Assembly (NCBI GenBank): GCA_963816745.1
Contig: CAWFLQ010000003.1
Location: 304,187 to 368,186 of the forward strand
Direction of reading: 5' to 3'
Source: an uncultured Alphaproteobacteria bacterium
GTDB taxonomy: Bacteria; Pseudomonadota; Alphaproteobacteria; Rhizobiales; Xanthobacteraceae
DNA: 64,000 nucleotides
In this document: in pieces, positions 1-14,805 of the stretch
How positions within the stretch are numbered: the first letter of the stretch is position 1
Layout: each line of letters opens with the position of its first letter
The notes under the pieces: generated by a model
What the model was told of the DNA's origin: nothing
Database searches by the model: none
Seen by the model: the letters and a program-made list of their open reading frames with translations, nothing else
Position numbers and translations under genes: made by a program

Positions 1-693
1 CATTTGCCGGCGGAATTCACTGTCGCACTGCGGCGAACGCACCGTTCTCGGCCCTCCTGGAAGGCACTTTGACGAACCCATCGGACCGCGAAGGCGCGAT
101 GCAAACAACGCGGCCGTGCGAATGCTCCGCGAGTCCTTTGAGACTCATCTCGCCGGACAGGGGGCTGCTCAGGTACGAAGCGTCCGCCGGCACCGTCATG
201 TTCTTCCGAAAAGATCTGCTTCCCGATGACCGGGTGACCTACACGAACGCGAAGGGACGCGAGACCTACAAGCAGGTCGTTGGTTTCAGCAAGGTGCTGA
301 ACGCCCACTGGCATCTCGGGATGCGTGCGACCGTCAGGCTCGGCGAAGACGCTCGTCGTCCGGCTGCGGCCCTACGTGGTGTTCACGCGGGACGGAAGGG
401 AGCCGCTGAAGGACGCTGAGGAGATGACCAAGATGCGCCGGCGGTTCTGCAAGAGCTGGTTCAACCACGTCTGGCGACCGCTCTTCCAGGCGTTCTACGA
501 ATTCTTCGGAAATGGGCTACCTAGCGTTCGCATAGATCTTGGCGAGCATCGGAGTTGGGCGGTTGCCGGCCAGGGACTAAAGGTGATGAGCCGTATGCGG
601 ATGCCCTTCGACCTGGACGCGATCGATACCGAGATCGAACCGGATGAGCCGGACGAGAGCGACATCGACGAGAGCGACGAGGAAGAGGAATGA
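1..693 (+). pseudogene. 3' portion of the gene directly upstream of the short pAgo. By position it is the expected effector-APAZ partner, with the effector domain outside the window. One apparent frame switch.
   Basis: Frame 3 is open from the window edge and looks coding to about 350 (..FFRKDLLPDDRVTYTNAKGRETYKQVVGFSKVLNAHWHLGMRATVRLGE). Coding signal then continues in the +1 frame (..LVVRLRPYVVFTRDGREPLKD..), which is closed upstream by TGA 298-300. That frame ends at TGA 691-693, overlapping the pAgo ATG (ATGA). The APAZ assignment is contextual only. Confidence 0.45.
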
Positions 694-2222
694 CCGCAGC
701 GTGGCACGCGATCCATCTCGACGAACCAAAGCTGATGTTCGGTCATGACCAGACCGCTGAGCATCCTAAGGACGGTCTCTTTCTCTTCGGTCCGGTCGAC
801 TCTAACCAGAACCCAGTCCGCATGGACGTCGGTGTCATCGGCACGCCGGTAGGTCTGCAGAAGTACTTGAAGTGGGTGTCGTCGATCGAGAGATTCATCG
901 ACGTGCCGCCGCCCAATCCGAAGCGCAAACGCAACGACGCCAATACGTTCGTGTGGCCCGGTTTCGAGGCCGTCTACGGGGCTTCGTGGCCTAGCAAGCC
1001 TTTCGCGACGTGTCTTATTGATGCGGCCGAGCTTAGCCGCCGGATCCTCGACGCCGACCGGCACCAGGCGATCTATTCGGCCGTCGCGCTATACGAGGAG
1101 GCGCTGCGGAAGTACCTGCGCGAGGAGGACGCGAGGCCAGCACTGTGGTTCGCGGTGGTTCCGGACGAAGTCTTCAAGTACGGGCGGCCGCAATCGACAG
1201 TGCCGCCGAAGCTGCGGACGCCGGGAACCAGACGGCTGGGCATGAAGGCGGCCCGCTCCATCCTGAACAAGGGATCATTGTTCGCGGAGGAGATGGAAGC
1301 TGCTGCTATGTACGAATACGAACTGAACTTCCACAACCAACTCAAGGCGAGGGTGATGGACACTAGCCAGGTAATCCAGGTGGTAAAGGAGATCACGCTG
1401 GAGCCGCCGCTCCCGGCCGAGAACGCGCGCTCGACCATGCAGGATCCGGCGACTATCGCCTGGAATCTCTCTACTACCAGCTTCTATAAGACCGGCGGAA
1501 AGCCATGGCGTCTGGCGCGATTGCGGGACGGGGTGTGCTACGTGGGGCTTGTCTTCAAACGCATCGAGCGGCCCAGTGGTGGCGACAACGCCTGCTGCGG
1601 GGCGCAAATGTTTCTCGGATCTGGCGACGGGCTTGTCTTCAGGGGCGCTGTCGGGCCCTGGTACTCGGAGACGAAGGACCAATTTCATCTCGACCAGGAT
1701 CAGGCGGCGAAGCTGATGGAGATGATCGTCCGCTCCTATAGGGATATCCACCGCGCTCCTCCCGCCGAACTCTTCATTCACGGCAAGACCAACTTCGATC
1801 AAAACGAATGGGCAGGGTTCGCGAGCGCAGTGCCGCAGACGACGAAGCTCGTCGGTGTGCAGATCCGGAATGGAGCGGATGTGAAGCTCTTCCGATACGG
1901 TGCAAATGCGGTGCTGCGCGGAACAGCTCTCGTTACCTCTCCGACGTCGGGATATTTGTGGAGCAGAGGCTACATTCCGCGTCTGCGCACGTACCCGGGG
2001 CGCGAGGTCCCCAATCCTCTGACAGTCGAGATCAGGCAGGGCACGGCCGACATCGAACGGGTAATCAATGATGTGATGTCGCTGACCAAGCTTAACTTCA
2101 ACGCCGCCGAATATTGCGACGGCTTACCGGTGACACTGAGGTTCGCGGATCTCGTTGGCGAAATACTGACCGCAGGCCCCATTACGCCTCATGCGCCGCT
2201 TCCGTTCAAGTTCTACATCTGA
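690..2222 (+). CDS. Short prokaryotic Argonaute (MID + PIWI only, catalytically inactive type)
   Basis: 510 aa with typical short-pAgo landmarks. N-terminus: HLDEPKLMFGHDQ..DGLFLFGP. MID-like motif: FHNQLK. PIWI strings: FYKTGGKPWRL, CYVGLVFKR, ACCGAQMFL, ELFIHGKTNF, PNPLTVEI, TKLNFNA. C-terminus: LPVTLRFADLVGEIL...FKFYI. The canonical catalytic positions appear replaced (GxDV becomes GLVF, RDG becomes HGK). Confidence 0.85.
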   Translation: MTAAWHAIHLDEPKLMFGHDQTAEHPKDGLFLFGPVDSNQNPVRMDVGVIGTPVGLQKYLKWVSSIERFIDVPPPNPKRKRNDANTFVWPGFEAVYGASWPSKPFATCLIDAAELSRRILDADRHQAIYSAVALYEEALRKYLREEDARPALWFAVVPDEVFKYGRPQSTVPPKLRTPGTRRLGMKAARSILNKGSLFAEEMEAAAMYEYELNFHNQLKARVMDTSQVIQVVKEITLEPPLPAENARSTMQDPATIAWNLSTTSFYKTGGKPWRLARLRDGVCYVGLVFKRIERPSGGDNACCGAQMFLGSGDGLVFRGAVGPWYSETKDQFHLDQDQAAKLMEMIVRSYRDIHRAPPAELFIHGKTNFDQNEWAGFASAVPQTTKLVGVQIRNGADVKLFRYGANAVLRGTALVTSPTSGYLWSRGYIPRLRTYPGREVPNPLTVEIRQGTADIERVINDVMSLTKLNFNAAEYCDGLPVTLRFADLVGEILTAGPITPHAPLPFKFYI

Positions 2223-2390
2223 GCCTGCGACTTGCTCCACGCGGTCAGCGTCCAAGCCCTGTTGCCGGATCGCGTGGCACCTTTCTATGTTAGCGCCGAT
2301 CCGTGTACAAACCAGTATCACTAAACAAACCAAAGCCCTTTTCTGTCCGAATCGGACTCTACAACCCTCCAGCGCCGAAAGGACGCGGCC

Positions 2391-3647
2391 ATGGGTCCAA
2401 TCACACTTTTCGATAAATCGTTTGTCGAGATGCTGAACCTCGACGAAGCCACAATGTTTGACGTTCTATACAAATCGGTGATCTGTCCGATATTCTACAC
2501 CGAAGTCCTCGCCGATCTTTCAAAGGTGCCACGTGATCAGCGCACTGTCGAACGCATCGTTGCTGACGTGGCCCGCAAAACGCCAATCATGCACGCAACA
2601 CCGAATGTGTCGCACTCCAAACTCTGTCTCGGCGAGTTGCTTGGTCACTCGATTGAGATGCGCGGCGTTCCAGCCGTTGCTGGCGGCAGGGCCGTCAGGC
2701 AGAGCGACGGAAAAGTTGGCATTGTCTTCGACGAGGCAAGCGAGGCCAAGGCATTTGACCGTTGGCAACGTGGAAAATTTTATGAACTTGAGCGAGAATT
2801 CGCTTCCCGCTGGCGTGAGCAGTTGAAGGCTGCAAACCATGCGGACATGGCGAAGCTTGCCAAAACGGCCCTCAAAATCAGCGCCTCCCCAAAGACCTTG
2901 GATGAAGCTCTAGCGATCGCCAAAGAGGTTGTGCAGGGGGCTGGGCAACGGTTCTGGATTCTCAAGACCGCGTACGCGCTGCTTGGACTCGAACCGAGGC
3001 AATGGAATGCTGTACTGACTCGCTGGAAGGAAATGGGAGGACCACCGCTGCCGCAATACGCCCCATACACGGCATACTGCTTGTTGGTGGACGTTTTCTT
3101 CTATGTTGCAGTGGACAAAAGGCTAATCTCGCCCGATCGTCCAAGTAACCGAACGGATATCGCGTATCTGTATTATTTGCCGTTCGCAATGATGTTCGTG
3201 TCGAACGACAAGCTGCACAAGAAAACAGTGCCGCTGTTTCTTACGGATAGGCAGCATTTCGTCTCGGGAGACGAGCTGAAGAAAGACCTACAGGCGCTTG
3301 ATGCGCACTATTCCGCATTGCCCGAAGCTGAGAGGGCGCAGGGCTTATTCCGGCTCGCGTCAACGCCTCCAAACGATGACGCATTTCTGACTACACGAAT
3401 CTGGAAACGGTTCGGACTGAACTTCGAGCGATCAAAGCCGTTTGACCACAATGAAAACAAGGAAACGAACGACAAAATCGTTGCTGAGATGAAAAAGTTG
3501 ATGGCCGCAGCGAAAACGCCCGAACCGGGAATGTTCACCCCAGGCGAGTTGAATGACCCCAACGCAATAACGATCCAGAGGCTTGTACCTCTACAGCGAG
3601 GCAAGTGGCGCCTGATGCCGCCGGGTGTTGAGGCGGACGCTTCATAA
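2391..3647 (+). CDS. Hypothetical protein, possibly a split PIN-like nuclease fold
   Basis: 418-aa ORF with an AAGGA-type RBS about 8 nt upstream, visibly less GC-rich than its neighbours. Acidic motifs are spaced as in PIN domains: ITLFDKSF (N-terminus), FYTEVLADL, then NRTDIAYLYYLPFAMMFVSNDKL after a long insert. The fold call is motif-level only. Confidence 0.5.
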   Translation: MGPITLFDKSFVEMLNLDEATMFDVLYKSVICPIFYTEVLADLSKVPRDQRTVERIVADVARKTPIMHATPNVSHSKLCLGELLGHSIEMRGVPAVAGGRAVRQSDGKVGIVFDEASEAKAFDRWQRGKFYELEREFASRWREQLKAANHADMAKLAKTALKISASPKTLDEALAIAKEVVQGAGQRFWILKTAYALLGLEPRQWNAVLTRWKEMGGPPLPQYAPYTAYCLLVDVFFYVAVDKRLISPDRPSNRTDIAYLYYLPFAMMFVSNDKLHKKTVPLFLTDRQHFVSGDELKKDLQALDAHYSALPEAERAQGLFRLASTPPNDDAFLTTRIWKRFGLNFERSKPFDHNENKETNDKIVAEMKKLMAAAKTPEPGMFTPGELNDPNAITIQRLVPLQRGKWRLMPPGVEADAS

Positions 3648-3819
3648 TGGGACGGGCCTGGACGGGCGGGCGAGCCGATTGGGGCTAAGTGGGTCAGCCT
3701 CTGCGAACGAACACAGACGGCAAGGCCTTGGCAAACCACCTCAAGCCTGACTGTGAATTGCCTTCGGTCGCGACCACGACGGCAAGGCGAGGCTAAAATC
3801 AGGGTTTGACAGGGCACCC

Positions 3820-4950
3820 ATGGCCGATCTCCAGAAAATAGTCGATGAGCTCTCGAAGCTCACACTTCGCGAGGCCACCGATCTCGCGAAGATGCTGAGA
3901 GAGAGATGGAGTGCAGGCGCGCTGCTTTTCGACGATCGCAAGAGGACGCGGACGGATCCTCTCGGTCTCGGCGAGAGCCTGTTCACGTTCTACGATGAGT
4001 GCGGCAGGCACGGCTACGACGAATTCAGATCGGTTGTGAACGGCTGGCTTGCAAAGATGCCAGCGGCCGATCGGGACGAGCTGATGACGCGTATGCGGGA
4101 TGGCGGCAACCGCGAGTTCGGAGCTTCGCTCACCGAGCTTGCCAGCCACGCGTTCATTCTCGGTTTGGGGTATCGTGCCAGCGCCCACCCGGAAATCTCT
4201 GGGACGAAGAAGCGGCCCGACTTCGCCGCAACGGACCAGCAAGGCACCGAGACGCTCGCGTACATCGAAGTGACTACCGTAAACCCGCCCTCCGCCGAAA
4301 AGGCTGACAGGAACCGCGAAAATTCCGTCTACAACGCCATCGACCGCGCCGAAATCCCAGCAGGCTCGGCCCTCGGCTACAGTCTCGTTCGCGCGGCGAA
4401 AAACAGCCCTCCCCTCAAACGTCTCGTCTCCGATGTCGAACGCTGGGCCGCGGACAATGCCGAAACGGCGAAGACCGAGGAGGTGAGCAAGACCTTCACC
4501 GTCGGCGATTGGACGATCGAGCTCGATCTCTACTCCGGCGGCACCAATCCCGATCCTGGAGTCCATGCGATCGGCGTAGTCGATATGGGCGGCGGGATCA
4601 TCTCACCGCATAAGGATCTACGTGCGGCTTTGGAGACCAAATCCAAGCGATATGGAGCGCTCGACAAGCCATATCTGATCATTGTCGCAGACGGAAAAGA
4701 GCAGCTCTTCAGCAAAGACTCGATCAAATCAGCGCTCATCGAAGCCGTGCTCGGAGATGAGATCGTCCAATTCAGGGGCGGAGTGCCTTACACCATCGCA
4801 TGGCTCGGAGACTTCGGAGACCACCTCGAACTGCTGACGCGAGATTGCGATTTTAATCCTCGCAAGCCTCGACCTGGGAAGCTGCCGTTCTACGATCGAA
4901 CTACATCTGCAAAAGCTAAGACCTTGTGCCGATTCTGTGCGGTCTTCTGA
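3820..4950 (+). CDS. Hypothetical protein with an N-terminal ribosomal L7/L12-NTD-like segment and a PD-(D/E)xK-like core
   Basis: 376-aa ORF. Residues 1-31 ([31 protein letters not shown]) closely resemble the Rhizobiales RplL N-terminus as I recall it ([31 protein letters not shown]). Further in, [32 protein letters not shown] fits an E..PD..(D/E)x(K/T) restriction-endonuclease-like pattern. Confidence 0.55.
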   Translation: [376 protein letters not shown]

Positions 4951-4961
4951 GTAATCCGTGC

Positions 4962-5090
4962 AACGTGCCCTACCTCACCGCGATGCTGGAAGGCGGCAAC
5001 CTGGACTCGTTCCTAGCGAGCACCGGCGCCGACGCGCCCAAGGTCGAGGCGCAGGGATATGCATCGCCGAGCAGCGTCGTGCAGTAGGGT
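4962..5090 (+). pseudogene. Internal fragment of a GH1 beta-glucosidase paralog
   Basis: The nucleotide stretch ..gccctacctcaccgcgatgctggaaggcgg..gactcgttcct.gcgagc.ccggcgccgacgcgcccaaggtcgaggcgcagg.. closely matches 14210-14310 of the full GH1 gene (APYLTAMLEG..DSFLAS.GADAPKVEAQ). No start codon or surrounding GH1 sequence is present. Confidence 0.6.
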
Positions 5091-13350: not shown

Positions 13351-14805
13351 ATGCCCATGCGATTGACCCGCCGCGATCTAGCGAAGGTTGCCGGTGCGGG
13401 GGCGCTCGGAGTGGCGGCGCCGGCCGGCGCCCAGCCGAGCGAGGGCGCCCTCCCCCAGCGCGAATCCACGCGCGGCTTTCCGAAAGGCTTCCTCTGGGGC
13501 ACGGCGACCGCCGCCTATCAGATCGAAGGCGCCGTGAACGCCGACGGCCGCGGCCCCTCGATCTGGGACACCTTCGCGCACACCCCGGGCAAGACCCACA
13601 ACAACGACACCGGCGACGTCGCCGACGATCACTATCACCGCTACCGGGACGACATACAGTCGATGAAGGCGCTCGGCATGGCGGCGTACCGGTTCTCGAT
13701 CGCCTGGCCGCGCATCTTTCCGCAAGGGACCGGCGCGCCCAATCCGAAGGGGCTCGATTTCTATAATCGCCTCGTCGACGAGCTCATCGCCAACGGCATC
13801 GAGCCGTTCGCGACGCTCTATCACTGGGACCTGCCGCAGGCTCTGCAGGATCGCGGCGGCTGGGAAACGCGCGACACCGCCAGCGCGTTCGCGGACTATG
13901 CCGGCCATGTCGCCGACAAGCTCAGCGACCGGGTGAAGCACTTCTTCACGCTCAACGAGTGCGCGGCCTTCGTCGAGCTGGGCCACGGCAGCGGCGTGCA
14001 TGCGCCGGGCCTCAAGCTGCCGCCCGGCCGGCTGAACCAGGCGCGGCATCACGTGCTGCTCGCCCATGGGCTCGCGGTGCAGGCGATCCGCGCGCGCTCG
14101 CGCGCGGGCACGCAAGTCGGGCCGGCGGAAAACATCAGCGTCGCCATCCCCGCCATCGAGACGCCGGAGCACATCCGCGCCGCCGAGCTCGCCACCCGCG
14201 AGCTCAACGCGCCCTACCTGACCGCGATGCTGGAAGGCCGCTACCTCGACTCGTTCCTGGCGAGCGCCGGCGCCGACGCGCCCAAGGTCGAGGCGCAGGA
14301 CATGCAGGCGATCGGCAGCCCGGTCGATTTCGTCGGCATCAATATCTATGCCCGGCAGCTTACGTGCGGCGCGCTCCGACGCCGCGCCGCGGCTTCGCCT
14401 CGCTGCCCTTCCCGGCGAAGTTTCCGATGATGAATTCGTCCTGGCTGCGCATCGGCGCCCGAAGCGCTCTACTGGGGCCCGCGCAACCTGGCCAAGGTCT
14501 GGAACGTGAAGGACATCTACATCACCGAGAACGGCTGCTCCGCGACCGACGTGCCCGCCGCCGACGGCATCGTCTACGACACCGACCGCATCATGTTCCT
14601 GCGCAACTACCTCACGCACCTGCAGCGCGCGACCGCCGAGGGCGTGCCGGTGCGCGGCTATTTCCATTGGAGCCTGATGGACAATTTCGAATGGGCCGAC
14701 GGCTACGGCACCCGCTTCGGCCTCCTGCACGTGGACTACGCCACGCAGAAGCGCACGCCGAAGCTGAGCGCGGTCCAAGCAGACCAAGCTATCCGACGAC
14801 ATTGA
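13351..14805 (+). pseudogene. GH1 beta-glucosidase with a Tat signal, carrying two compensating frameshifts as sequenced
   Basis: GAGGAG RBS; [27 protein letters not shown]; [15 protein letters not shown]; FFTLNEC (acid/base region). The frame leaves at about 14356-14361, and the alternative frame reads YVRRAPTPRRGFASLPFPAKFPMMNSSWLRIG. The frame returns at about 14453-14460 (..VWNVKDIYITENG, the nucleophile motif). The original frame has a stop at 14428-14430. Confidence 0.8.

Follow-up and report, generated by a model that had tools for sequence, protein, structure and literature searches.

A captured L7/L12 N-terminal domain on a PD-(D/E)xK-like protein of soil Alphaproteobacteria

Introduction

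Why should a putative nuclease begin like a ribosomal protein? The question is raised by an open reading frame (ORF) of 376 codons on the + strand at positions 3820-4950 of a 64,000-nucleotide stretch of DNA from an uncultured alphaproteobacterium of the Xanthobacteraceae (the whole stretch is referred to here as the window). A first-pass annotation of the letters alone had described its first 31 residues as close to the N-terminus of Rhizobiales RplL, and the remainder as unrelated to L7/L12 and nuclease-like. The L7/L12 N-terminal domain dimerises and docks on L10 at the ribosomal stalk, and a protein that carries this domain might be brought to the same place. A full-text literature search returned no description of a fusion of the L12_N type, nor of the gatB-targeting cassette described below. 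New here is a PD-(D/E)xK-type protein with a captured adaptor domain, which is interesting at the level of the family and ordinary, being a probable pseudogene, at this locus.

Results

The head is of L7/L12 type

Residues 5-30 of the window protein match the Pfam family Ribosomal_L12_N (PF16320) with an E value of 8.2e-5 and 22.7 bits, placing the window copy just below the gathering score of 25. Sequences of RplL and rplL from related Hyphomicrobiales stood in for the host gene. The host's own RplL is expected to be of the same type, since the best named relative of the FlhB encoded in the window belongs to a 'Hyphomicrobiales bacterium' (77%). Over residues 1-31 (3820-3912, + strand; two predicted helices) the window protein is identical to RplL of Rhodopseudomonas, Bradyrhizobium, Nitrobacter and Xanthobacter at 21 of 31 positions, with identity ranging from 19 to 24 of 31 across the 120 RplL sequences listed. 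Searched with tblastn against a small database, Bradyrhizobium RplL aligned to 3820-3921 with an E value of 2.7e-9. The consensus head of the clade, derived from 44 homologues, is closer still and agrees with Nitrobacteraceae and Xanthobacteraceae RplL at 28 of 31 residues. The Pfam match and both identity values bear out the proposed RplL likeness of residues 1-31, and the Rhizobiales N-terminus given in the first-pass annotation for this comparison was exact, as RplL of the four genera named above begins in just this way. Chance-level identity is excluded, with more than 50 homologues keeping the same head.

M1, L11, L14, E18, L26, K29 and W30 are invariant among the heads of the clade, and hydrophobic positions are conserved at I7, L11, L14, A19, L22, L26 and W30. 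Similarity to RplL stops at W30, which is the end of the structural N-terminal domain. An AF2 model of the closest full-length relative, computed on the family alignment (pLDDT 85), has head helices at residues 4-12 and 16-30 with pLDDT 75-89. Model and alignments agree that the protein opens with a two-helix hairpin and continues into a flexible linker, as expected for Ribosomal_L12_N. The linker is short in the window protein (AGA; 3913-3921, + strand), while in the relatives it comprises 5-10 residues, is rich in G, S, A and P and varies in length. The L7/L12 C-terminal domain (PF00542) is absent from the window protein, for which Pfam gives the N-terminal domain only, and among ~25 loci no match to that C-terminal domain or to RplJ was found in or near any L12N-type gene.

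The clade proteins thus share with RplL the homologous first 30-31 residues, the hairpin, its extreme N-terminal position and the flexible linker that comes next. In contrast, RplL has the PF00542 domain and an Ala-rich hinge and sits in an rplJ-rplL operon, whereas the clade head evolves much faster than the real RplL head and is attached to an unrelated body of ~385 aa. On the strength of these alignments, we consider the head to be a genuine L7/L12 N-terminal domain from a Hyphomicrobiales-type rplL and not a chance resemblance.

The ORF cannot start before the ATG at 3820: an in-frame stop is found 21 codons further upstream, and the stretch between them contains no ATG, GTG or TTG. A true start downstream of the L12-like part is excluded by the constraint on codons 2-24 (see below), and the beginning of the body offers no alternative start codon.

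The body contains a PD-(D/E)xK-like core

Residues 35-323 (3922-4787, + strand), from a conserved LF(D/E)xR motif onwards, are homologous to an uncharacterised family of ~385 aa, as seen with 127 homologues, in profile searches and in DNA homology to the closest full-length gene (L017). When 1.84 billion representatives were searched with a profile, 3883 clusters of this body family were retrieved, 793 of them at E <= 1e-30. Almost all are 380-400 aa long, start at the LFxxR motif and are without the head. The earlier statement that the rest of the protein is unrelated to L7/L12 is supported, and Pfam finds only the N-terminal domain.

A PD-(D/E)xK-like core with the order alpha-beta-beta-beta-alpha-beta was assigned to 4105-4400 (+ strand) from AF2 topology, Foldseek matches and invariant columns, and this order is present in both AF2 models. 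The core residues are E106 (4135-4137), D134 (4219-4221) and E150 (4267-4269), with T152 at the position where Lys is usual. E106, P133-D134-F135 and Y148-I-E150-V-T-T are invariant or nearly invariant columns of the family. In the AF2 models the invariant Glu belongs to the first helix, P-D to strand 2 and E-x-T to strand 3; a few of the distant members have E-x-K in the strand-3 motif (e.g. YLEAK in P0250). An invariant Lys at 4639-4641 (+ strand), found in alignments A1, A2 and A3 within the pattern Lys-x3-Tyr-Gly (K274 in the window, K276 in P0002 and K239 in the distant alignment), is a candidate for a relocated catalytic lysine.

Foldseek lists obtained with the whole model and with the core alone are both topped by proteins of the REase fold (3ijm, DrdV, Bax1, EcoRV, BpuSI, R2 RLE, I-Ssp6803I and the SPARDA nuclease), with best E values of 0.027 and 0.035 that are below significance and a probability of up to 0.96 for DrdV. 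One distant family member weakly matches Mrr_cat (E 0.032). The body itself matched no Pfam, NCBIfam or PADLOC model, and PHROGs gave a weak match to phrog_8571, whose function is unknown. A sequence search of the PDB matched only the L7/L12 N-terminal-domain fragments 1dd3, 1dd4 and 1zav, with no structure for relatives of the body, and Foldseek against viral structures found nothing.

The E..KRPDF..YIEVTT motif first proposed as nuclease-like is thus present, coincides with invariant columns and is accompanied by REase-like fold matches; its catalytic reading is weakened by the Thr at the canonical Lys and by a best E value of 0.027. The body shares its core topology with the PD-(D/E)xK nucleases 3ijm, the DrdV nuclease domain, EcoRV, Bax1, R2 RLE and I-Ssp6803I, and the conserved Glu (first helix), P-D (strand 2) and E-x-(T/K) (strand 3) are placed as in these enzymes. 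Unlike these enzymes, the clade has Thr for the canonical Lys and an invariant Lys ~125 residues later, and the body adds an N-terminal helical part and a ~220-aa C-terminal part without recognisable relatives. The core looks like a PD-(D/E)xK nuclease, a label we regard as reasonable but unproven given fold evidence that is weak but consistent.

Two unusual sequences were met among those collected. P0110 (357 aa) combines N-terminal domains of HTH/transposase type (PF13384, PF13551, PF13518 and PF13565) with about half of the family body, and is probably the result of an IS insertion into a family member. P0268 (155 aa, from a 1.5-kb metagenome contig) is an RplL whose C-terminal domain carries a stretch of ~30 residues twice in tandem.

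The head was captured once and is under selection

A database search with the window protein returned 127 homologues with 44-77% identity. Most are ~420 aa long, 60-77% identical to the window protein and carry a precomputed PF16320 match, and some sources label them 'ribosomal L7/L12-like protein'. The L12N-bearing clade, with its ~420-aa proteins, is found in soil Alphaproteobacteria, and one member (L006) lies on a contig binned as Verrucomicrobiae.

In a maximum-likelihood tree of the bodies, 54 head-bearing rows and 3 rows with secondary head loss form one clade, the sister of which is head-less. As all head-bearing rows fall in a single body clade, the fusion arose once. The head was subsequently lost at least twice within this clade, in L027:779-1921 (P0053) and in P0065, both of which start directly at MLFEDR. 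Hence, with two nested lineages having lost it, the head is dispensable for keeping the gene.

Comparison of codons 1-31 of 14 fused genes with Bradyrhizobium rplL gave 66-77% nucleotide identity and pS values of 0.52-0.90, and the 45 nt upstream of the fused genes are not rplL-like. With synonymous sites saturated and nucleotide identity at this level, the capture is old and not a recent copy of the resident rplL. The suggestion that the head might be a captured gene fragment therefore holds as far as an origin in rplL is concerned, but not for a recent capture from this genome.

The head has a dN/dS of 0.19 within the clade (codon bootstrap 0.11-0.29), and codons 2-24 taken alone give the same value. 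The linker is relaxed at 0.65, while four parts of the body range from 0.10 to 0.14. The difference between head and linker identifies the head as a selected protein domain on a loose tether, and selection on the head codons means that the start codon cannot lie downstream of them. In the intact members, these substitution patterns indicate that the head is kept by purifying selection and is thus a working part of the protein.

The window copy is truncated at its 3' end

DNA homology to the closest full-length gene (L017, 78% nucleotide identity) spans 3812-4787 of the window only. At the protein level, family homology covers residues 1 to ~323, and the last 53 codons are unrelated. Compared with 12 relatives, homology ends 163-181 nt before the stop of the window gene and ~300 nt before the stops of the relatives. 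The unrelated 3' extension of 53 codons plus stop (4788-4950, + strand) stands in place of the last ~95-100 codons of the family, and the homology endpoints mark it as a truncation scar. The family C-terminus is not encoded in any frame of the window. No other part of the protein is as constrained as this missing region (dN/dS 0.10), which contains many invariant positions.

Comparing the window with itself by blastn revealed a 103-nt relic of a GH1 gene at 4961-5063, 91% identical to 14205-14306, which is a rearrangement scar at the right edge of a low-GC island. Low-depth metagenome contigs are identical to the window over parts of 3857-4632, and none of them spans the junction at 4787, where a mis-assembly or assembly chimera may have produced the apparent truncation. 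Judging from the homology endpoints, the window copy is most likely a 3'-truncated and probably inactive remnant of a rearrangement. For this genome the practical message is accordingly a modest one: what it carries is a truncated leftover within an island in decay. Taken jointly, a true L12 head, an old single capture, selection on the head and truncation in the window make up a reading that we hold to be very probable.

An antisense ORF at 3799-4566 was also considered and rejected: nothing supports it, and every homologous match falls on the + strand.

A sister clade is fused to gatB

In the sister clade, the same body continues in frame from the final codons of chromosomal gatB, and this arrangement has one origin (support 95). 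At the junction the native ..K-L-G-V-stop becomes ..K-L-F-E-(D/E).., and fusions occur in at least 8 loci; the loci concerned are L009:8534-11514, L005, L033, L034, L035, L037, L040, L042 and L056. On the 1.57-Mb contig L009, gatA is followed by the gatB-body fusion (867 aa), and this in turn by a second gatB tail. Such a displaced native gatB tail, 17-130 aa long and with the native C-terminus, directly follows the stop in 8 of the 8 loci with downstream sequence. Fused and displaced tails of one locus differ with a pS of 0.61-0.73, a saturation that marks the fused tail as foreign. Between loci, the displaced tails have a dN/dS of ~0.2, which argues that they were functional until recently and are not products of old decay. 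The gatB form hence looks, from these sequence comparisons, like a cassette of foreign tail plus body that repeatedly recombines into gatB and overwrites its 3' end.

Insertion in a conserved gene together with a displaced segment is the hallmark of homing-type elements, and it is found in the gatB-fused clade; the L12N clade, including the window gene, does not display it. At L070, where the family member lies behind a Peptidase_M24 gene, there is no duplicated end of the host gene. As with free-standing homing endonuclease genes and the orphan 3' ends of Rhs/CdiA loci, the gatB clade replaces a native 3' end and leaves an orphan downstream. It differs from those loci in that the newcomer is read in frame with an essential enzyme, to which it adds a C-terminal extension. 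The L12N clade has no insertion site of the homing or Rhs/CdiA kind.

Discussion

Possible docking on the ribosomal stalk

The comparisons show a single ancient event in which a stand-alone PD-(D/E)xK-like protein of ~385 aa, from a large family that travels on mobile elements, acquired the opening 30-31 codons of an rplL of Hyphomicrobiales type. What was taken corresponds precisely to the L7/L12 N-terminal domain, and a short, flexible linker connects it to the body. For its role, we propose that the head would pair with another copy of itself or with L7/L12 of the host in a dimer built as a four-helix bundle. This dimer would sit on the C-terminal helix (alpha-8) of L10, tethering the nuclease-like body to the ribosomal stalk beside the factor-binding site. 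In the window gene, the final ~100 codons were most likely removed when the edge of the low-GC island was rearranged.

To the central step, docking of the body on the stalk through the head and L10, we assign a probability of roughly 0.4. A functional link to translation fits the second, independent fusion of the family to the translation protein GatB. Conservation cannot separate dimerisation from L10 binding, because the same hydrophobic residues serve both. Against docking, the head changes at the pace of the body and far more quickly than the heads of real RplL, at least two lineages have dropped it while keeping the gene, and thousands of relatives work headless. Furthermore, in the Verrucomicrobiae-binned L006, an alphaproteobacterial head might not fit the stalk of the host. 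More doubtful is the wider proposal that the intact L12N members are nuclease-like effectors plugged into the stalk and their sister clade sits on GatB, both being mobile PD-(D/E)xK proteins tethered to the translation apparatus.

The L7/L12 N-terminal domain is a self-sufficient dimerisation domain, and PD-(D/E)xK enzymes are usually dimeric. It is thus possible that the head is only a compact dimerisation module for a nuclease that acts as a dimer, with no link to the ribosome. This is a serious rival and nearly as good as stalk docking. The fragments 1dd3, 1dd4 and 1zav, the sole PDB sequence matches, represent a domain that dimerises unaided, and a mere dimerisation module accords with a head that is constrained yet drifts at the rate of the body and can be dispensed with in some descendants. 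However, a head so close to abundant host L7/L12 would be expected to form mixed dimers and to reach the stalk anyway, and the GatB fusion of the sister clade is left unexplained.

The gatB data themselves are best explained by a different account, in which the body is a selfish cassette, or one that spreads horizontally, recombining in frame into highly conserved translation genes, and the head is left over from this movement; the L12 piece would stem from an old insertion at the 5' end of rplL and be kept mainly for translation initiation. The precise joining of the sister-clade body to the last gatB codons (..K-L|F-E..), the foreign fused tails and the displaced native tails as recent casualties all agree with it, as do the integrases, recombinases and IS elements that adjoin family members. 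DNA homology between L12N-type genes also begins within a few bases of the ATG. Nevertheless, this account fits the L12N clade poorly: in ~25 loci no L12N-type gene adjoins rplJ or the remainder of rplL, the upstream 45 nt bear no likeness to rplL, amino-acid constraint extends over all 30 codons and so beyond the initiation region, and the boundary of the captured piece coincides with a structural domain end and a linker. We consider it unlikely as an explanation of the head.

That the resemblance is due to chance or annotation, with a start further downstream or an ORF that is not a gene, is refuted by the family data and has next to no probability, for although the window copy scores under the Pfam threshold and no promoter-like site was found upstream, more than 50 homologues have the same head with a consensus that is nearly that of RplL, codons 2-24 are constrained, and the start of the conserved body lacks an ATG, GTG or TTG, its first invariant residues following directly.

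If the stalk-docking reading is true, the L12N proteins would be the first non-ribosomal enzyme recruited to the bacterial stalk by L7/L12 mimicry, and a nuclease-like domain would be placed beside the sarcin-ricin loop and the factor-binding site. Tethering, if correct, would give a mobile or defence gene a hitherto undescribed means of sensing or attacking translation. Even without docking, a large family of 3883 clusters for which Pfam, NCBIfam and PADLOC have no model has twice been fused to parts of the translation machinery, and its gatB form behaves like a cassette overwriting the end of an essential gene. One cloned gene would suffice to put either of these family behaviours to a direct test.

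The pAgo neighbourhood is local to the window

The window gene lies in a block of low GC content (58.5% over 1-4800, vs 64% for the whole window). Upstream on the same strand are a TIR-APAZ gene, a short pAgo gene and an orphan gene. The short pAgo (690-2222, + strand) is intact and matches the PADLOC model pAgo_I at 7e-206. Its TIR-APAZ partner (3-693, + strand), recognised with a PADLOC profile, is frame-shifted as sequenced: the frame changes near nt 340, one frame running to ~350 (profile positions 270-334) and the other from 325 (333-437). The 418-aa orphan ORF between pAgo and the L12N gene (2391-3647, + strand) has the lowest GC content of the block, 53.5%. It matches nothing in Pfam, NCBIfam, PADLOC or PHROGs and has no relative in any fetched locus. 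A promoter/terminator scan, itself uninformative, showed no promoter-like site upstream of the L12N ORF.

In its position 1.6 kb downstream, on the same strand and in the same low-GC block, the L12N gene resembles a component of a short pAgo system (SPARTA: TIR-APAZ plus short pAgo). Unlike the SPARTA parts, it has no conserved co-occurrence with pAgo or APAZ. The defence context suggested at first pass is not conserved, as pAgo, APAZ and the 418-aa neighbour are all absent by tblastn from ~70 related loci (L001-L067). PADLOC has no match for the L12N protein or its relatives, which are not part of any pAgo model. The pAgo neighbourhood is therefore local to the window and not a system.

The settings of the relatives vary, from metabolic genes (L001) to the integrase end of a mobilisable element (L014), the vicinity of IS elements (L016) and an ICE/defence island in which the relative adjoins HEPN-RES and Fic genes (L003). 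Family members also occur on plasmids of Pseudomonas, Acinetobacter, Bradyrhizobium and actinobacteria. The loci were also searched for a partner or immunity gene that is conserved, and none was found; from one locus to another, DNA homology does not extend beyond the start and stop codons, and there is thus no conserved partner gene. The only recurrent neighbour seen is a conserved gene for a 259-aa serine protease of Trypsin_2 type, ~50 nt upstream in one sub-lineage (L003, L004, L007 and L043).

A single locus on the Acinetobacter baumannii plasmid pWM98-2 (L072:1843-6161) has a distant member (25% identity) at the end of a tightly packed operon. This member, which may be a signal-activated effector, is separated by 4 nt from a preceding run of genes that encode a CBASS cyclase, a small protein, an AAA ATPase and a DUF6602 protein; ImmA/IrrE and HTH genes are found upstream.
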